A stretch of DNA of 64,000 bases from Candidatus Omnitrophota bacterium (GTDB taxonomy: Bacteria; Omnitrophota; Gorgyraeia; JABMRN01; RBG-13-46-9): positions 9,632 to 73,631 of the forward strand of contig JADHYN010000004.1 of assembly GCA_016782425.1 (NCBI GenBank), in the 5' to 3' direction. Each line of letters starts with the position of its first letter. The stretch's first letter is position 1. Below, piece by piece: positions 12,652 through 61,049 of the stretch. The notes below the pieces were generated by a model. It ran no database searches and was not told the origin of the DNA. It saw nothing but the letters and a program-made list of their open reading frames with translations. Made by a program: the position numbers and the translations under genes.

Positions 12652-14202
12652 CTATTCTTCTTTTTCTCCGAACACCTCGGCTGTGAATATATAAATATCG
12701 CATTCGCCCTTTTTCCAGGCATCGGGTGACATACCTGCCTTGTCACCGCATAGCGAATTCATGAACTGCTCGCGGTTCCAGCCTGCTTCGGTAGCAACCT
12801 GCGGCAGATAAACGCCGCTGGTAAAACCTCTTCTCACGATAACTCCGTGCTTTCCCATTTCTATCACGTCAGGGTTATCGATTTTCTTAAGCGGAGATAG
12901 TGCTGAAATTTCAATGTCTATATCATCCATCTCGTTTAGTGTAACCTGCGGAAATCGCGGATCGCCGGTTGCCGCTTCCACCGCCATATCACGCACTGTC
13001 AGATAAAATGGGCCACGGCCTACGATGTTTCCGATGCAGCCTCGTAGCTGGCCGTGCTTGTGGAGCGTCACAAATCCGCCCATCTCAGCCAATAAGACAG
13101 GATCCGTTTCTTCAACCGGCAGGCGTTTTCTGTTTTTCAGGTAATGCATGATCGAATCCCGTGCCAGTTTCAGCATCTTTTTTCTTTGTACTTCGTTCAA
13201 CATATCATTATCTCCTTTTTCTGACTTTGGCATTTGGCGTTTCGGGCCTAGTTTTGATTTTTTCCGCCCGAGGCGGATCCGCCTTTGGCGGAGATTTTTT
13301 CCGCCCGAGGCGGAGATATTTGATTTAATTATGGCGGCACTTAAATACCCCACTACCCTCCTTTTATCCCAGGTAGTATCTCCTGAATTGGCGTACTTGA
13401 GGATTTCTATCTTGTCGGCTCCGAGTTTTTTGGTCGCGATCATGGTCGCGTACACTGCTCCGTAACCGCACATTAACTGGTGACCTGAAAGCGAACTTTC
13501 GGTGTATAATTTATCGGCATCAAATTCTTCTATTACGGAAATCGTTTTTCTATCCATGCTGTTCGCTTTCTTATACGGCAGGTAGTGCGACATGTCTGTG
13601 CTCGCAACAAGCAAAAAACTTTCTTTGTCTTTTAAGGTGTCGTATAAAGCTTTGCCCAGTATTTTGCAATTCTCCAAATTCTGATCGCCGATTGCGACGA
13701 GAACAATCTTGAAATCGTTTAAAACCGCCTGCAGAAACGGTATTTCCATTTCGATGGAATTTTCTCCCAGAAAAGCGAGGGGTTTGTCATAAATCTTCGG
13801 ATGCGCGGCGATCAGTTGTTCTGTGATTTTTTTATCGATTTCAACAACGCCAAGCGGCGTTTCAATGCCGTCTACATCAAGAACCGCTATGCCGTCATAA
13901 TTCCTTGTGTGGCTGAAGCCTACTACGACAACGGTCTTTATAGTTTGTTTACTGATAGCTTTAAAGCCATAGGCTGCAACGGGTCCCGAATAAACAAAAC
14001 CGGCATGCGGGGATATTATCGCGACAATTTCGCCGTCGATTGAGGGGGGTGTAGCTTTGGTAAGATATGATTGCAGTTCGGCGGTCAAACTTCTTTTTGA
14101 AGCAGAGTACCACCTTCCTGCCAGATCCGCCTTCTTCACTTCGCCCATCGCCGTTCCAGCAAGGAGTGTTGAGGTGATAAGACCGATTAAGATTTTTTTC
14201 AT
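12652..14202 (-). CDS. Memo-like (AmmeMemoRadiSam system protein B) fused in frame to AMMECR1 (protein A), with N-terminal signal peptide
   Basis: Residues after the signal peptide (AGRWYSASKRSL.., SPHAGFVYSG, STDMSHY) are Memo-like. The C-terminal 183 aa (MLKLARDSI..GCIG..GDPRFP..GVYLPQV) are AMMECR1. The track ORF start at 14271 reads through the tRNA, so the real start is taken as ATG 14202. An internal SD plus ATG sits at 13203. Confidence 0.8.
   Translation of the reverse strand: MKKILIGLITSTLLAGTAMGEVKKADLAGRWYSASKRSLTAELQSYLTKATPPSIDGEIVAIISPHAGFVYSGPVAAYGFKAISKQTIKTVVVVGFSHTRNYDGIAVLDVDGIETPLGVVEIDKKITEQLIAAHPKIYDKPLAFLGENSIEMEIPFLQAVLNDFKIVLVAIGDQNLENCKILGKALYDTLKDKESFLLVASTDMSHYLPYKKANSMDRKTISVIEEFDADKLYTESSLSGHQLMCGYGAVYATMIATKKLGADKIEILKYANSGDTTWDKRRVVGYLSAAIIKSNISASGGKNLRQRRIRLGRKKSKLGPKRQMPKSEKGDNDMLNEVQRKKMLKLARDSIMHYLKNRKRLPVEETDPVLLAEMGGFVTLHKHGQLRGCIGNIVGRGPFYLTVRDMAVEAATGDPRFPQVTLNEMDDIDIEISALSPLKKIDNPDVIEMGKHGVIVRRGFTSGVYLPQVATEAGWNREQFMNSLCGDKAGMSPDAWKKGECDIYIFTAEVFGEKEE
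13252..13327. repeat. GC-rich double/triple palindrome element (CCGCC-CGA-GGCGG / CCGCC-TTT-GGCGG / CCGCC-CGA-GGCGG), copy 1
   Basis: ttttgattttttCCGCCcgaGGCGGatCCGCCtttGGCGGagattttttCCGCCcgaGGCGGagatatttgattt. The 40-nt core recurs at 58484-58528. It lies in frame in the Memo-AMMECR1 linker. Confidence 0.85.
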
Positions 14203-14210
14203 AACTTGAT

Positions 14211-14286
14211 TGGTGGACTGGAGCGGAGTCGAACCGCCGACCTCCTCGTTGCGAACGAGGCGTTCTCCCAACTGAACTACCAGCCC
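14211..14286 (-). tRNA. tRNA-Ala (anticodon CGC), CCA encoded
   Basis: The 76 nt fold by hand as a 7-bp acceptor with G3:U70, a D arm GTTC/GAAC, anticodon stem CCTCG/CGAGG with loop TTCGCAA, and a T arm GGCGG-TTCGACT-CCGCT, ending in ACCA. Confidence 0.95.
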
Positions 14287-20533: not shown

Positions 20534-20827
20534 TTTTTCCTCCTTCAATGAGACCCACACTTATGAAAATCGAAGATTTTCGTAAGTGTGTCTTCCGTGA
20601 ATTTCTTCTGTGAATCCTGTTAGAAATATCTCATTTCTAACAGGGTGAAGGGTCGAATTGGACCCCCCCACCACTTTCTAAAATTACAATTTCTTGTTAC
20701 TAAAGGCTTTGTCTCTATTATGATGCACTATCACCACTTTTGTACATAGCATAGAAAGTGGTGGGGGGTAAATTCAGCCATATAACTTACGTCGCTTCGC
20801 TCCGTAAGTTATGGCTTCATTTACCTC
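20534..20827 (-). repeat. three-hairpin intergenic element, copy E1 (central module type B2, plus one extra hairpin)
   Basis: Fills the TPR-stop to exbB-start spacer. Hairpin A 20556-20590, extra hairpin 20616-20644, long hairpin B arms 20652-20680 / 20752-20779, hairpin C 20780-20813. The core is roughly nine-tenths identical (by eye) to 31326-31451. Confidence 0.85.
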
Positions 20828-31242: not shown

Positions 31243-31524
31243 CTTGCCTCCTTCGATGAGCATTGGACTTATGAAAATCTCTGATTTTTATAAGTCCATC
31301 TTCTATGAATTTCTCCTCCGAATGTGCGAATTGAACCCCCCACCACTTTCTAAAATTACAATTTCTTGTCATTAAAGGCTTTGTCTCTACCATAATACAT
31401 TATCACCATTTTTGTACATAGCATAGAAAGTGGTGGGGGGTAAATTCAGCCATACGACTTGCGTCTCTTGTAACCTGGAAATAAAAATTCCTAAACTATA
31501 TATAAACGCAAGTCGTGGCTTCAT
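31243..31524 (-). repeat. three-hairpin intergenic element, copy E2 (central module type B2)
   Basis: Fills the spacer from the MerR-like stop to the smc start. Hairpin A 31264-31298, hairpin B arms 31326-31352 / 31424-31451, hairpin C arms 31451-31463 / 31507-31518. Confidence 0.85.
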
Positions 31525-31740
31525 TTATTTGCCTTTAAGCAGTATTCTCCGTAAAATATCTAGATCCTGAGATGTGTATTCGCGATAGTGGTTTATTGGG
31601 TTCCTGTGGGGTTTTGGAAAAATGCCCTTCGCCTCGTAGTTTTTTATCGTTCCCTTGTAGATGCCCAATATGTTGGCCACCTCTTGAACATTGTATCTCT
31701 TCCTGCCCAATTTGGTTTCTTCATCAACCATCAACATCAC
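31525..31740 (-). CDS. small MerR-type HTH DNA-binding protein (no effector domain)
   Basis: YNVQEVANILGIYKGTIKNYEAKGIFPKPHRNPINHYREYTSQDL matches the MerR N-terminal HTH pattern. Confidence 0.6.
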   Translation of the reverse strand: MMLMVDEETKLGRKRYNVQEVANILGIYKGTIKNYEAKGIFPKPHRNPINHYREYTSQDLDILRRILLKGK

Positions 31741-44258: not shown

Positions 44259-44504
44259 CTATCTTCTTCTTCTTTTTTTTCTGCCGCCGCGCTGCATCTT
44301 TGCTTCGCTGACGTTGCCTTTCTTATCGATAAAGTAAAGATAACCTTTTTTCCTTTTTATGCGGCAGTTGTGGACTATCTTTCTTCCGCCACCCTTCTTT
44401 TTGCCACGAGCCATTTTTGTTTCGTACGCGCAACCATTTTTGCCTACGAAATAGAGGTAGCCCTTTTTTCTTTTTATGCCGCATTTACATATTACTTTCG
44501 CCAT
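44259..44504 (-). CDS. small highly basic protein made of two tandem ~37-aa repeats
   Basis: C.IKRKKGYLYF(V/I).K.G....(E/A).KM.RG occurs twice. The tail is poly-Arg/Lys. AGGAGGTG SD. Confidence 0.5.
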   Translation of the reverse strand: MAKVICKCGIKRKKGYLYFVGKNGCAYETKMARGKKKGGGRKIVHNCRIKRKKGYLYFIDKKGNVSEAKMQRGGRKKRRRR

Positions 44505-44647
44505 TTATTTCACCTCCTTCCGTCAATTCATTTTCTTAGAACTTCGACTTTGAACAGTCGAATTGAACCCTTGACATCTTTGATGTCAAGGGTAAGTTCA
44601 GCCATATGATTTATGGCAACTTCGGTTGCCATAAATCATGGCTTCAG
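44505..44647 (-). repeat. three-hairpin intergenic element, copy E3 (minimal, central module type B1)
   Basis: Fills the nadX-stop to 81-aa-start spacer. Hairpin B arms 44559-44577 / 44583-44601 (TTGACAT-ctttg-ATGTCAA), hairpin C 44602-44641, short A-like hairpin 44543-44562. Confidence 0.8.
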
Positions 44648-45460
44648 TTACGTTCCTATTTTAACGCCCTCTACGATGCCCTTCAGTGTTGCGATGGCAG
44701 AAAGGGCTGCTAGTTTGCTTGTTTTCGGATTTTTCTCAAACGGGACATTTTCGGTTCTCGTCGTAATCCTGCCGAAATCGCCGACTATTTCTATCTCATG
44801 CGTGTTTTTTGTGAATTTAGGGGAGGTGACGATCTCTACCGTTGTATTTTTCGCCCCTATGCCTGCAAGGGATAAAAGCGATGCAACGTTTACATTCTTG
44901 GGAAAGCCCTTCACTGCTTCGAGGGCATTTCCTTTAAATATAACCTTCTCGTCTCTTATGGAATTTATGTCTATGTTTTTCTCCTCGAGATAAGGCGCGC
45001 CTTCAAGGCCTTTAGGCGGTTTTTTTGTAGTTAGCGTAACTTTGTCTATTTTGGAAATTTTTGCGCTTTTTAGGGCATCTATCCCGCATATAGCACCACT
45101 CGGGAAATACACCTTGATGTTTTTGATTCTTGCTTCTTCCAGGAGGTTTTCGGATTCGATCAGCCCTCCGACGCTCATCACCATGATGTCTTTTGACTTT
45201 TCGACGGCTTTTTTCACCACTTCCCGAGAAATACGGCTACTTGCGGCTTCTATTATTAATTCGGATTTGCCAAAAAGGGCTTCTTCCGAATCAGTTGCAA
45301 CATCCTTTTTCACGAGGCGCGATAGGCTCTCGCTCTTCTCTTTATCTATATCGTATAGCGCTACAAGTTCTATATTGTTTTTTAAAAGCGTTGCGCAGGC
45401 AGAGGCTATCTCACTGCCTATCGCGCCGCAACCTATAATGCCAACTTTTAGCTTCTTCAT
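44648..45460 (-). CDS. nadX: L-aspartate dehydrogenase
   Basis: KVGIIGCGAIGSEIA Rossmann N-terminus. The C-terminal NPKTSKLAALSAIATL is typical of the Asp-DH family. Adjacent to nadA. Confidence 0.7.
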   Translation of the reverse strand: MKKLKVGIIGCGAIGSEIASACATLLKNNIELVALYDIDKEKSESLSRLVKKDVATDSEEALFGKSELIIEAASSRISREVVKKAVEKSKDIMVMSVGGLIESENLLEEARIKNIKVYFPSGAICGIDALKSAKISKIDKVTLTTKKPPKGLEGAPYLEEKNIDINSIRDEKVIFKGNALEAVKGFPKNVNVASLLSLAGIGAKNTTVEIVTSPKFTKNTHEIEIVGDFGRITTRTENVPFEKNPKTSKLAALSAIATLKGIVEGVKIGT

Positions 45461-50479: not shown

Positions 50480-50890
50480 AATTTATCCCCCCTTCAATGA
50501 GCACGCAACTTATGGAACGAAATGAACATAAGTTGCTGTGCGAATTGAATCCTTGACATTTTGTTCCGAAACAGAATTTATTATTTTTTCAATAGTCTTC
50601 TTTCTTGTATTTCCATTTTTAAATTGTCTTTCCCGCATAAAAGCCTGTGCCCGCGAATTGAACTTTTCATAATAGATTAATTCGATAGGTCGTCTATGCT
50701 TCGTATACTTAACATGTCCACTTGAATGTTCGGCGAACCGTTCTTTTAAGCGATACGTATGGCCGTAATACTTTGTGCCATCGTTACATTTCAAGATATA
50801 AAAATAATAAGTTGTTTTCATAAGCAAAATGTCAAGGATCAAATTTGCGCTTATGATTTATGTCGCATAAATGCGGCTTAAATCATGCGC
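50480..50890 (-). mobile_element. three-hairpin intergenic element, copy E4, carrying a GIY-YIG ORF inside central hairpin B1 (candidate autonomous copy)
   Basis: Hairpin A 50502-50540, hairpin B arms 50541-50559 / 50829-50849 enclosing the ORF, hairpin C 50847-50890 (overlaps the last codons of dapF). 50491-50559 differs from 60834-60902 at 2 of 69 positions. Confidence 0.7.
50510..50821 (-). CDS. small stand-alone GIY-YIG nuclease-domain protein (YhbQ/UPF0213-like)
   Basis: MKTTYYFYILKCNDGTKYYGHTYRLKERFAEHSSG..ELIYYEKFNSRAQAFMRERQFKN carries the GIY/YIG, Arg and Glu/Asn motifs. Start set at ATG 50821; the track begins at an upstream TTG. Confidence 0.8.
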   Translation of the reverse strand: MKTTYYFYILKCNDGTKYYGHTYRLKERFAEHSSGHVKYTKHRRPIELIYYEKFNSRAQAFMRERQFKNGNTRKKTIEKIINSVSEQNVKDSIRTATYVHFVP

Positions 50891-51701
50891 TCATTTGACC
50901 TTCGAAAACGATGTGGGCTTTGCCTTCGAAATAAACATCGTGAAAGTGATTGCGTTCTTTCTTGAAGTAAACATTCAAAATTTCCTTGCTTTTTGTAACA
51001 ACCTTGACGGGCTCTCTTGTGCCGTTTACCAGGTGCGAAATAATGGCCGATGCGACCACGCCCGTGCCGCAGGCTAACGTCTCGTCTTCGACGCCCCTTT
51101 CATAGGTCCTTACCAGAATCGTCGAATTGTCGTTGGAAGGTTCCACGAAATCGGCATTTGTGCCTTCCGGTTCGAACAGCTTATGATATCTTATTTTCGA
51201 ACCCATTTTCTTTACGGGATAATTTTCGATGTCCTTGACAAAGTGTACGGCGTGTGGAACTCCTGTATCGAGTGTATGGACGTTCATAATTGTTTTTCCG
51301 GCTCCGATATTCTGGTCGAGCTTGACATTTTGTGGAGGCGTCATCTTTATCCTTATCAAACCTTTTTTTACTTCTGCTTCCAATGTGCCGGCTTTTGTTT
51401 CTATTTTCATCGAAGCCTTGCACCACTTTTTCTCGTATGCGTAAAGGGCGCTACACCTGATGCCGTTTCCGCACATGGTTACCTCCGAACCGTCGGGATT
51501 AAAAATCCTCATCTTGAAATCGGCGGATTCCGAGTTTTCCAGAACAAGAAACCCGTCGGCACCGATAGAATATTTCCTTCTGCAGGAACGCCTCGCAAAA
51601 TCCGAAAAGTCGCCTATTTTGCTAGCGAGTTTCTTTTCCCTGTTGTCAAGAATCAGAAAATCGTTTCCGCTTGCTACAGTCTTTACGAAATCTACATTCA
51701 T
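50883..51701 (-). CDS. dapF: diaminopimelate epimerase
   Basis: ASGNDFLILD, the two catalytic Cys regions (MCGNGIRC, LACGTG). Confidence 0.9.
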   Translation of the reverse strand: MNVDFVKTVASGNDFLILDNREKKLASKIGDFSDFARRSCRRKYSIGADGFLVLENSESADFKMRIFNPDGSEVTMCGNGIRCSALYAYEKKWCKASMKIETKAGTLEAEVKKGLIRIKMTPPQNVKLDQNIGAGKTIMNVHTLDTGVPHAVHFVKDIENYPVKKMGSKIRYHKLFEPEGTNADFVEPSNDNSTILVRTYERGVEDETLACGTGVVASAIISHLVNGTREPVKVVTKSKEILNVYFKKERNHFHDVYFEGKAHIVFEGQMSA

Positions 51702-58479: not shown

Positions 58480-58483
58480 TGTT

Positions 58484-58528
58484 TTTTCCGCCCGAGGCGG
58501 ATCCGCCTTTGGCGGAGATTTTTGATTT
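58484..58528. repeat. GC-rich double palindrome element, copy 2
   Basis: ttttttCCGCCcgaGGCGGatCCGCCtttGGCGGagatttttgattt. The core is identical to 13262-13301. Confidence 0.85.
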
Positions 58529-59807: not shown

Positions 59808-60824
59808 CTACAACAACCCTTCCGTTTCTTCTAACCCGTACATTATGTTCATGTTTTGTACAGCCTGGCCTGCTGCGCCCTTTAATAGATTATCTATACA
59901 GCTTACTACAACTACTTTGTTACCGGTTACTTTAGTCCCGATGTTGCAGAAATTTGTGTATCTTACATCTTTTATTTCCGGAAGCGTGCCTTCATCCATA
60001 ACTCTTACAAACGGCTTGTCCTTGTAAAAATTTTTGTAAACCTGTGTAATCTCTACTATATTAAATTCCTCATTCAAATCCATATAAACCGTTGAAAGAA
60101 TTCCTCTGTTCATGGGAATAAGGTGCGGCACAAATAGAACGTCGACGCCTTTTCTACCGGAAAGCTTGCCTAGCACCATGTTGATCTCGGGCTTATGCTG
60201 ATGCTCGTTGATTTTATATGCTTTAAGATTTTCGTTTACCTCCGCGTGCGAGAGCGCAATGGTCGCTTTTCTGCCGGCGCCCGTAGTGCCGCTTTTTGAA
60301 TCTATGATGATTGTATTTAAATTCACCGCACCTTTTTTAACCAAAGGCATCGTAGCAAGTAGCGCACTCGTCGGGTAACAGCCGGGATTTGCGATTAATT
60401 TGGCACCTTTTATTTTATTCCCGTAAAGCTCTGGCATACCGTATACAGCCTTTCTGATGTTCGCAATGTCTTTATGTTTTATGCCATACCATCTTTCGTA
60501 TTCACCGACTTCCAGTCTATAATCGGCGCTTAAATCGATAACCTTTTTTCCCGCTTCAACGAGCTTCGGCGCTACCGTCATGGAAACCGTATGCGGAAGT
60601 GCAAGAAAAAAGAGATCCGCCTTCTTTATCGCATCCTTAAGACTAGGTTTCTTGCAGACAAGATCAATTTTTTCCGCAAGTGACGGAAAAATATCCGATA
60701 TCGGCAATTCTTCTTCCACTATTGCCTGCAAAACGGCTATTTTAACGTCTTTATGTCCTGCCAGGATTTTTACAAGTTCTTCGCCAGTGTATCCGGTCGC
60801 TCCGATTATACCTACCTTTATCAC
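59808..60824 (-). CDS. argC: N-acetyl-gamma-glutamyl-phosphate reductase
   Basis: KVGIIGATGYTGEEL and the active-site GCYPTS. GTG start behind GGGAGG. Confidence 0.95.
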   Translation of the reverse strand: MIKVGIIGATGYTGEELVKILAGHKDVKIAVLQAIVEEELPISDIFPSLAEKIDLVCKKPSLKDAIKKADLFFLALPHTVSMTVAPKLVEAGKKVIDLSADYRLEVGEYERWYGIKHKDIANIRKAVYGMPELYGNKIKGAKLIANPGCYPTSALLATMPLVKKGAVNLNTIIIDSKSGTTGAGRKATIALSHAEVNENLKAYKINEHQHKPEINMVLGKLSGRKGVDVLFVPHLIPMNRGILSTVYMDLNEEFNIVEITQVYKNFYKDKPFVRVMDEGTLPEIKDVRYTNFCNIGTKVTGNKVVVVSCIDNLLKGAAGQAVQNMNIMYGLEETEGLL

Positions 60825-60991
60825 ATCTTCCTCCCTTCAATGAGCACGCAACTTATGGAACGAAGTGAACATAAGTTGCTGTGCGAATTGAACCCTTGAC
60901 ATTTTCGGAAATCTTCATATGGGAAATGTCAAGGGTATAATTCGACCACATAGTTTACGTCTGCCACCGGGCAGTCGTAAACTATGGCCTC
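60825..60991 (-). repeat. three-hairpin intergenic element, copy E5 (ORF-deleted derivative of E4; 5' leader of the arg operon)
   Basis: Hairpin A 60845-60883, hairpin B arms 60884-60902 / 60927-60945, hairpin C 60949-60986. It retains ATG AAG plus the last 19 codons of the GIY-YIG ORF in frame. Confidence 0.85.
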
Positions 60992-61020
60992 AGTATAGAC
61001 AAAAAAACCCACCCTGTCAA
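60992..61020 (-). promoter_or_regulatory. sigma70-type promoter of the arg operon, abutting element E5
   Basis: Minus strand reads TTGACA-17 nt (GGGTGGGTTTTTTTGTC)-TATACT. Confidence 0.55.
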
Positions 61021-61049
61021 TATATTTTCTCGTCGAGAAATGTCACAGG
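61001..61049 (-). terminator. possible intrinsic terminator after rpsI, overlapping the arg promoter
   Basis: Minus strand reads CCTGTgACA-TTTCTcgacgAGAAA-atatatTGACAGG-GTGGG-TTTTTTT. The stem is interrupted and AU-rich, so the call is weak. Confidence 0.3.

Follow-up and report, generated by a model that had tools for sequence, protein, structure and literature searches.

The 64,000-nucleotide (nt) stretch of Candidatus Omnitrophota DNA analysed here (contig JADHYN010000004.1; 'the window', in whose positions all coordinates are given) carries an arginine operon with the gene order argC-J-B-D-F-G-H, confirming a sequence-only reading of this DNA, and the order continues with lysA, dapF, a copy of a repeat element and dapA. 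A further copy of this element, the arg copy, occupies 60825–60997 (minus strand), from the −10 box up to the start codon of argC, and consists of three hairpins and the argC ribosome-binding site. The copy between dapF and dapA, at 50.5 kb, has the three hairpins and in addition a gene for a small GIY-YIG nuclease in the loop of the middle one.

The argC promoter is of the sigma-70 type (TTGACA-17-TATACT, 60992–61020, minus strand) and agrees with the consensus at 11 of 12 positions. It had been described as ending exactly where the element begins; instead, the −10 hexamer (60997–60992) occupies the first six nucleotides of the upstream hairpin module, HP1 (60936–60997, minus strand; covariance model R1, 43.8 bits, E = 1.5e-8), in the place where upstream modules normally have the outer-stem strand TCAAAT (covariance-model match 60997–60936). 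HP1 has the stem GGCCATAGTTTACG / CGTAAACTATGTGGTC, with a bulge on the 3′ arm, and ends in a linker, GAATTATA (60943–60936), which is complementary to the −10 box at five of six positions; the outer-stem partner of this linker is thus the −10 hexamer TATACT, outside the expected transcript. The central hairpin H2 (60893–60935, minus strand) comprises a left arm CCCTTGACATTT (60935–60924), an 18-nt loop CCCATATGAAGATTTCCG (60923–60906) and a right arm AAAATGTCAAGGG (60905–60893). It is of the GIY-YIG-cassette type and has no nuclease gene; the same arms surround the open reading frame (ORF) at 50.5 kb and in L001, L004, L005 and L206 (L-numbers denote loci from related genomes). The downstream module HP3 (60836–60892) is the HP1 module inverted, with a score from model R1 of 74.1 bits on the plus strand versus 23.9 bits on the minus strand, and reads TTCAATTCG, stem, CTCATTGAA on the mRNA strand. 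It is followed by the argC ribosome-binding site GGGAGG (60835–60830), a spacer and the GTG start codon (60824–60822; 60822–60835 in all, minus strand), argC being identified by TIGR01850 with 423 bits. The sole ORF of the arg copy has 21 codons (60853–60918, minus strand; MKISENVKGSIRTATYVHFVP and a stop codon); it starts with an ATG in the H2 loop and continues across the right arm and the linker into HP3, and the GIY-YIG domain is absent. On re-reading 60825–60997, the minus-strand sequence quoted earlier matched exactly. The RNA was predicted to fold into three hairpins (−65.6 kcal/mol, z = −6.2) with the argC ribosome-binding site unpaired, and as DNA the two strands formed the three hairpins equally well, at −43.0 and −43.6 kcal/mol (z = −9.5 and −10.2).

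Eighty ArgC relatives (53–70% identity) were fetched, the 73 with at least 200 nt of upstream sequence were examined and the first 45 upstream regions were read. Most of those read have CCGACGAGAAAAT(G/A)CTTGAC-N17-TAATAT/TAAGAT/TATAAT upstream of argC, and the window promoter, with CTCGACGAGAAAATATA at 61037–61021, is clearly orthologous, which upholds the promoter assignment made earlier. We also observed that many Omnitrophota relatives conserve the motif CCGACGAGAAAAT(G/A)C just upstream of the −35 box (window 61021–61037, minus strand; L126–L173), often in two copies (…ccgacg…ccgacgag…); an ArgR-like operator or an UP element would be possible roles. L146, L152, L158 (with a middle hairpin of the GIY type), L161/L162 and L163 likewise have an element directly behind the −10 box, and the closest relative, L125, has a degenerate hairpin 1 in this position. 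Many relatives, e.g. L173, have a leader of about 25 nt and no element. Where at least 330 nt of upstream sequence could be scored (65 loci), 15 loci have a module no more than 420 nt before argC, in some cases ahead of the promoter, and the other 50 have none within this distance. As the transcribed strand has no terminator-like site and the ribosome-binding site is unpaired in the predicted fold, the arg element is likely to be co-transcribed as a 5′ untranslated region (UTR) of about 160 nt, making up essentially the whole leader; a transcription start about 7 nt after the −10 box would fall in the 5′ arm of hairpin 1.

The full copy (50486–50898, minus strand; model R1, 54.3 and 73.3 bits) comprises HP1 (50898–50839), the left arm (50838–50826) and right arm (50562–50550) of the middle hairpin, and HP3 (50549–50493), followed by a GGGGGG ribosome-binding site. 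Inside the middle loop lies an ORF of 103 amino acids (aa) without a ribosome-binding site of its own (50821–50510, minus strand), the product of which ends in …SVSEQNVKDSIRTATYVHFVP, also given as …NVKDSIRTATYVHFVP, before the stop codon; residues 5–73 match Pfam PF01541 with 46.6 bits (cut-off 22.6). The dapF frame was seen to enter HP1 of this element by about 13 nt, its stop codon lying at 50885–50883 (window 50883–50898). The arg copy had been taken for an ORF-less relative of this GIY-YIG-bearing copy and this proved correct, the central inverted repeat and the downstream hairpin being common to both. The flanks 60834–60902 and 50491–50559 differ at two of 69 positions, as had been counted (60865 and 60893); ungapped identity extends over 77 nt (60829–60905, 96%), HP3 of the arg copy is 96% identical to 50493–50549, and a 60-nt pattern from the shared stretch had two matches in the window versus none in 100 shuffles. 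The distance from arm to arm in the middle hairpin is 275 nt in the 50.5-kb copy versus 29 nt in the arg copy. Of the internal deletion of about 290 nt proposed by the sequence-only reading the size therefore has to be corrected, as 246 nt (82 codons, in frame) are missing; a deletion as such is plausible at the level of the family. The 21-codon ORF had also been thought to keep the last 19 codons of the nuclease gene. The nuclease domain ends near residue 73–85, and the tail of the nuclease ORFs is repeat DNA, a read-through of the right arm, linker and third hairpin whose conservation is that of DNA; because homologues read the right arm and linker in three frames (KCQGFNS, NVKDSIRT and KMSRI), these codons are not nuclease sequence.

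The motif TCAWYGAAGGRGG occurs four times in the window, each time on the minus strand directly before a start codon, and the covariance model added a fifth copy at 44.5 kb. The copies share the grammar (TC)AAATGA-[hairpin 1]-GAATTTRAC-[hairpin 2, CCC...GGG]-TTYAATTCG-[hairpin 3]-CTCATTRAA-GGAGG-N5-10-start. In the fifth copy (44510–44651, minus strand; model R1, 50 bits) HP1 is intact, H2 is a mini-hairpin, CCCTTGACATCaaaGATGTCAAGGG, and the downstream module is degenerate; GGAAGGAGG and an ATG at 44504 follow. The copies upstream of a tolQ/exbB-like gene (20536–20824, minus strand; 65.9 bits) and of an smc-like gene (31244–31528, minus strand; 39.3 bits) have another central cassette with CCCCCCACCACTTTCTA inverted arms and a non-coding loop of about 100 nt; these cassettes (20661–20797 and 31333–31469, minus strand) are 137 nt long and 91% identical to each other. 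The genes downstream of the five copies (tolQ-like, smc-like, a small ORF, dapA and argC) are unrelated. In other genomes the same central slot was seen to hold CCCCACACCAATTGC…, CCCGCCCTTTTGGCGG… with a cargo of about 100 nt, or CCCAGCACTAATT…, and near position 3721 of L047 the scaffold has no middle hairpin.

Beyond the window, the element is a composite palindrome in which two inverted modules of about 60 nt surround a central inverted-repeat hairpin (CCCTTGACATTTT…AAAATGTCAAGGG). The GIY-YIG gene lies within the same three-hairpin scaffold in L001, L004, L005 and L206, between co-directional housekeeping genes, and the 16-nt arms CCCTTGACATTTTGYC / GRCAAAATGTCAAGGG are conserved together with the nuclease ORF across homologues of 54–67% identity. 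A scan of contigs, one genome per species, with the pattern AAAYGTCAAGGNTTYAATKC (right arm and linker) returned at least 118 stretches, nearly all from Omnitrophota metagenome-assembled genomes (MAGs) and single-cell genomes or from assemblies labelled uncultured Planctomycetia. Among the matches listed, there are many per genome, with some genomes having matches on 12–14 contigs; about ten come from other phyla, where the architecture is absent or unexamined, and this number agrees with the chance expectation for such a pattern. By arm-to-arm distance the same listed matches fall into 65 short, ORF-less copies (16–62 nt) and 25 full or intermediate ones (164–283 nt), the latter with 17 distinct intact nuclease ORFs; 39 hits have no recognisable left arm, and about a quarter of the copies recovered via the central hairpin bear the nuclease gene. 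Viral contigs gave a single match, by chance and without the architecture, and a phage origin was rejected. Rfam had no match at any element, either at the gathering threshold or at E ≤ 5, in the window and three related loci, and our literature search found no description of this kind of repeat or of GIY-YIG proteins linked to such elements, an absence which is no proof of novelty.

Copies within one genome have modules only about 70% identical. The central hairpin has not generally spread more recently than its surroundings: loops are closer to each other than modules in one genome (81% versus 68–74%) and not in four others (52–57% versus 61–84%). L063 (4398–4880) contains a tandem multimer, in which the unit of middle hairpin, linker, hairpin 3 and CTCATTRAA is repeated three times behind one hairpin 1. 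Short middle-hairpin loops were also observed to be inverted between copies of one genome (L070 versus L066, L040, L041, L052 and L118; L007 versus L087), a pattern which implies that the segment between the arms flips, as perfect inverted arms would lead one to expect.

The element-borne nucleases are single-domain proteins of 85–100 aa. That of the window is 100% identical to a protein of a Candidatus Omnitrophica MAG, found by similarity although an exact-protein lookup returned no record; further homologues align over only about 81–96% of its length, at the 54–67% identity given above, and no NCBIfam model matches it. When 33 homologues were combined in a profile, it hit two structural-genomics entries of UPF0213, 1ywl and 1zg2, at E of about 3e-13, and SLX1 at only E = 0.41. 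Y8, Y18, Y19, G20, R28, H32, E64 and N69 are invariant across the 33 and by analogy with characterised GIY-YIG enzymes would be residues of the catalytic type, corresponding to the Tyr of GIY, the Tyr-Gly of YIG, Arg, His, Glu and Asn. A search of 1.84 billion cluster representatives gave 17,154 proteins at E ≤ 0.001, of which only about 25 scored above 90 bits; the element-borne nucleases therefore form a small clade within a very large family, for which we know of no established function. Two copies in one genome are about 88% identical, yet stand between different flanking modules. At homologous loci the ATG follows the left arm by 1–5 nt without a ribosome-binding site, and in some gene calls translated left arm forms an N-terminal extension (LTLDIL); public calls of these nucleases often carry spurious N- and C-terminal extensions that are repeat DNA. 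In L050 and L068 (genome CAYJQR01) the nuclease copies have no ATG and an apparent GTG start.

Hairpin-3 units, once reverse-complemented, can be aligned with hairpin-1 units column for column (54 sequences, 67 columns). The module consensus, TYNAATGA-[14-bp stem with a 1–2-nt bulge on the 3′ arm]-GAATTNRA, resolves into an outer 6-bp stem, a GA/GA internal loop and a 4-bp followed by a 10-bp stem split by the 3′-arm bulge, with a loop that often reads GGAACGAAGTGAAC. In the 54 modules 98.1% of cells in the named structure are standard pairs and 14 of the 20 pairs have changes on both sides; the covariation score was 0.54, compared with 0.16 in shuffles (none of 500 reached the observed value) and 0.04–0.09 in slid controls, in which pairing was 19–36%. 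The covariation is nevertheless not of the kind typical of RNA. G-T pairs make up nine of 1057 cells (about 1%) and are no commoner than A-C, so that selection on the modules at the RNA level was rejected, and the bulge and loop motif follow the orientation of the module and not that of the transcript: 130 of 152 modules have the bulge on their own 3′ arm, and the loop motif YGGAR occurs in the module orientation in 34 of 54 and in the opposite orientation in none of 54. A conserved leader peptide in HP1 was likewise discarded, as ATG-to-TGA frames were distributed 7/10/4 over frames 0/1/2 and stops were scattered. In about 0.9 Mb with 222 modules, 67 neighbouring pairs are convergent, against 9, 6 and 3 in the other arrangements, and the covariance model favours opposite strands at the two ends of each element. 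The element thus has dyad symmetry at the level of DNA, like structured terminal inverted repeats around a central palindrome. As a result, the outer hairpins would present complementary, not identical, loops in the mRNA, which argues against an RNA motif recognised by a protein.

Despite this symmetry the two ends are slightly unlike (upstream TCAAATGARG; downstream GCTCATTRAA, then GGAGG), and 58 complete elements could be oriented. An ORF of at least 60 aa starts within 40 nt downstream in 50 of the 58, most often at 10–15 nt, and a motif like a ribosome-binding site lies within 9 nt of the 3′ end in 42. In 35 of the 58 a co-directional upstream ORF ends at the element, and in 20 of these 35 its stop codon is a TAA or TGA lying in the first 8 nt of the element. 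The 17 distinct intact nuclease ORFs without exception run in the direction of the element and the host genes, as would fit a gene that has no promoter or ribosome-binding site and depends on read-through.

Direct repeats flank the elements in L077 (20 nt, AAGGGGAGTGTCGTGCCAAA), L067 (13 nt) and L038 (12 nt). An ungapped test for target duplication was weak alone (mean 6.28 versus 5.48) and convincing only in combination with a gapped comparison and with empty sites; with gaps allowed, flank similarity was 6.89 within the same element versus 6.06 between different elements (Mann-Whitney p = 0.018), and scores of at least 11 were reached by six of 57 elements versus 1.2% of cross-element comparisons. 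The clearest sites are at the junction of hydrogenase gamma and delta subunit genes, which carries a nuclease-bearing element in L206 (9990–10450) and an ORF-less one in L077 (7050–7260), the two standing at the identical nucleotide position; the same junction is empty in four relatives (delta subunit 94, 84, 84 and 83% identical to that of L206), where the genes overlap (…GAAGGAGAGTGCCATGTCTAAGCC…). The L206 element joins the host as GAAGGAGAATGCCATGTCTAA|CGAGACC… on the left and …GCTCATT|GAAGGAGATGCCATGTCAAAGCC on the right, and the duplication is of about 21 nt, its left copy keeping the gamma stop codon and its right copy the ribosome-binding site and ATG of delta. The duplications in L206 and L077 (20–21 nt) cover the ribosome-binding site and start codon and have the same end offset (+8 from the start codon); they differ from each other at seven of 20 positions, while the two copies in L077 are identical. 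As the two elements are also unlike in hairpin 1 and the middle hairpin, independent insertions at the same site, i.e. target preference, are the simplest reading, gene conversion being the alternative. Filled and empty sites thus demonstrate that the family is mobile and inserts with target duplication. Since about 5 nt at the beginning and about 3 nt at the end of the modules fall within the duplications, target sequence may make up part of the outer stems. In L206 the target-derived TCTA is complementary to the linker AATAGA; in L077 there are only three paired positions.

From these findings we consider it quite probable that 60825–60997 represents a non-autonomous copy, without the nuclease, of a composite palindromic mobile DNA element specific to Omnitrophota. 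The autonomous form would carry, in the loop of the central hairpin, a cassette of about 300 nt encoding the UPF0213-type GIY-YIG nuclease of 85–100 aa, whose gene, apparently lacking promoter and ribosome-binding site, would always point in the direction of the host genes. Insertion would take place into translation-initiation regions or gene junctions and duplicate 12–21 nt of target; the upstream gene would therefore keep or gain a stop codon and the downstream gene keep its ribosome-binding site and start, with the result that elements would be tolerated inside operons. The arg copy, set between the conserved argC promoter and the argC ribosome-binding site, would be transcribed as leader, and a stable 5′ hairpin leader may be its sole effect on arg expression. 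The GIY-YIG protein may nick or cleave hairpin or target DNA and so drive copying, possibly by homing-like repair that uses the ribosome-binding-site microhomology flanking every copy; on this account we infer that the nuclease drives the spread of the element. Only tentatively, and with more doubt than confidence, can the UPF0213-type GIY-YIG nuclease be proposed as the mobilising enzyme of an unrecognised class of mobile element, an enzyme that, structure-selective as SLX1 is, would recognise the extruded hairpin modules and insert or copy the element into translation-initiation regions, the linkers at the hairpin feet pairing with target-derived flanks. Several observations weigh against this whole interpretation. 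The arg copy has no recognisable target duplication, and clear duplications, varying in length from 12 to 21 nt, are found in only a handful of copies; no GIY-YIG enzyme is known to behave in this way. The nuclease has no separate DNA-binding domain. Within-genome module identity of about 70% points to an activity that is low or old, and 98% pairing in copies so diverged could reflect host selection for structure.

This last point leads to an account which we regard as somewhat unlikely, namely that the three-hairpin unit mainly benefits the host in the manner of repetitive extragenic palindromic (REP) sequences, as mRNA stabiliser, processing site, intercistronic insulator or DNA site of a host protein, and is kept at each locus by selection, the GIY-YIG cassette being a secondary parasite. 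Besides the maintained pairing, the strict polarity of the units relative to genes, with the ribosome-binding site always free, would fit such a role, as would the module upstream of argC in 15 of 65 ArgC-relative loci. Against this account stand the loops and bulges, which dyad symmetry renders complementary, not identical, in the transcript, the missing G-U enrichment and an arg-copy outer stem that pairs with the untranscribed −10 box; moreover, both the argC site and the hydrogenase junction are without the element in most relatives. Far less credible, to the point of being highly improbable, is a leader specific to the arg operon that responds to arginine as a riboswitch, attenuator or protein-binding RNA. 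It is suggested by the position between promoter and argC start and by the strong predicted folding, but the same unit precedes tolQ-like, smc-like and dapA genes and a small ORF in the window and dozens of unrelated genes elsewhere, and since the downstream genes are unrelated an arg-specific leader is excluded and this account effectively refuted. Nor was there an Rfam match even at E ≤ 5 or a terminator-like site on the transcribed strand of the arg leader, and in most argC relatives the leader is about 25 nt long and does not contain the unit.

How the short loop of the arg copy arose is a separate matter. Comparison across the family suggests that it probably came about by deletion of the nuclease gene, which at this locus would have been the in-frame loss of 246 nt. 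Beyond the hairpin arms the 5′ side of the loop matches the ORF start only in TATGAA(G), a marginal result when set against shuffles (p = 0.037), and on the 3′ side the remnant TTTC is no better than shuffles (p = 0.5), which counts against a deletion here; of the loop remnants to which the sequence-only reading had pointed, the first thus stands narrowly and the second fails. Elsewhere in the family, similarity to full-ORF ends reaches p ≤ 0.05 in 12 of 60 short loops (3 expected) and p ≤ 0.1 in 19 of 60 (6 expected). The short loop of L120 keeps both an ATGAAA start and a …SFPKAKCQG end (ATGAAA…AATTCTTTTCCTAAAGCAAAATG), and L070 and L072 are clear cases as well. Alternatively, the short CCCTTGACATTT…AAAATGTCAAGGG hairpin would be the original state or a homing site, and the GIY-YIG gene would have invaded the 50.5-kb loop later. 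A never-occupied hairpin would agree with the failed 3′ remnant, with the preponderance of ORF-less over ORF-bearing copies (65 versus 25 among the matches listed) and with the unrelated central hairpins that fill the same slot, which accepts different inserts; we nevertheless think it unlikely, as the arg loop keeps TATGAAG at the position of the ORF start, ORF-end remnants recur in short loops elsewhere and the 16-nt arms are conserved together with the ORF across the nuclease homologues.

Several known systems resemble the Omnitrophota element in part. In REPIN/RAYT systems, REP doublets are mobilised by a REP-associated tyrosine transposase (PMC3116915, PMC3337134). As in these, two inverted short hairpin modules with a spacer form a non-autonomous intergenic element, a small nuclease gene is flanked by repeats and is far outnumbered by gene-less copies, persistence is within one lineage and compensatory changes keep the hairpins paired. 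However, the enzyme is a GIY-YIG protein (UPF0213) and not an HUH/Y1 RAYT, the loop of a third, central hairpin houses its gene, one genome can have several copies of this gene, and the elements sit at ribosome-binding sites with target duplications of 12–21 nt. As the only coding cargo found between the modules is GIY-YIG, the element is not a REPIN in the strict sense, and we found no paper linking REPINs or RAYTs with GIY-YIG proteins. Miniature inverted-repeat transposable elements (MITEs) and mosaic repeats of bacteria, such as the Correia elements of Neisseria, pneumococcal BOX and the BIME and ERIC sequences of Escherichia coli (PMC2229807, PMC3184786), are likewise short, structured, non-coding, modular, intergenic and co-transcribed, and can provide or abut promoters and alter 5′ UTRs. 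The arg copy is MITE-like in sharing arms and flanking modules with GIY-bearing copies while lacking the gene; in contrast, MITEs and mosaic repeats either originate from DDE insertion sequences or lack a known enzyme, and they duplicate a short target stretch of constant length, whereas the Omnitrophota stems covary, the linkers keep their sequence and nothing but a GIY-YIG domain of about 90 aa is encoded by the autonomous partner.

GIY-YIG homing genes (Seg-type, or intron-encoded such as I-TevI) also place an ORF in the loop of a conserved structure and have occupied and unoccupied sites, and the one-sided sharing of flank between the window copies (77 nt, 96%) resembles co-conversion. Unlike these, the element has no intron core (no Rfam match), its single-domain nuclease of 85–100 aa has no sequence-specific DNA-binding domain, and its copies are dispersed intergenic scaffolds in one chromosome rather than one allele and are essentially absent from viral contigs. 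IS200/IS605 elements share hairpins with strand-specific bulges at both ends and the pairing of hairpin-foot sequence with a target-derived flank (L206), but here TnpA and TnpB genes are missing, the element is symmetric because each end is an inverted copy of the other, and target duplications are long where IS200/IS605 elements make none. SLX1, YhbQ and YazA belong to the URI-type GIY-YIG nuclease family (PMC7017083). The element nuclease is, like them, a stand-alone catalytic domain of this family, and the selectivity of SLX1 for branched DNA structures would fit a hairpin or cruciform substrate; unlike SLX1 it has neither a PHD/zinc-finger domain nor an SLX4-like partner, and the direct match is weak. 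Bacterial SLX1/YhbQ/YazA members are generally single-copy genes and are not known to be embedded in repeats. Integron attC sites are a poor match, as the modules end in TYNAATGA…GAATTNRA and attC sites in RYYYAAC…GTTRRRY; no integrase-like ORF was noticed beside the window copies, the window ORFs not having been screened systematically against Pfam for integrases. Comparison with cis-regulatory arginine leaders was likewise negative, with no Rfam match (E ≤ 5) and the unit standing before many unrelated genes. Each of the close analogues (REPIN-RAYT, MITE-like mosaic repeats, GIY-YIG homing genes and IS200/IS605) fails at least one defining test.

Other repeats and genes were observed in the window. 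A 42-nt exact repeat (13258–13299 and 58482–58523) consists of two GC-rich hairpins (CTCCGCC-AAA-GGCGGA and TCCGCC-TCG-GGCGGA), and the argJ-argB junction is taken up entirely by the second copy. The repeat probably represents a REP-like family of its own; resembling hairpins, GGCGGATCCGCC, occur inside the elements of L105 and L118. A tRNA gene (14214–14286, minus strand; 65.2 bits) is the sole Rfam match of the window at the gathering threshold.

All in all, the arg copy is best regarded as an unexceptional representative of an unusual family of DNA elements that extends through the phylum. The intergenic repeats known from bacteria go with DDE or HUH transposases, or no enzyme is known for them, whereas the only coding partner of this structured repeat is a UPF0213 GIY-YIG domain of about 90 aa, a class not known for such a role. 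Duplication of the ribosome-binding site and start region, leaving both neighbouring genes intact, would allow these elements a seamless life inside operons, and copies close to a promoter, which would make up entire 5′ UTRs (several lineages have this arrangement at argC), could change the stability or translation of the mRNA. If the proposed role of the nuclease is true, it would be the first biological role for a branch of this very large uncharacterised family, and the element would be a GIY-YIG counterpart of REPIN-RAYT and IS200/IS605.

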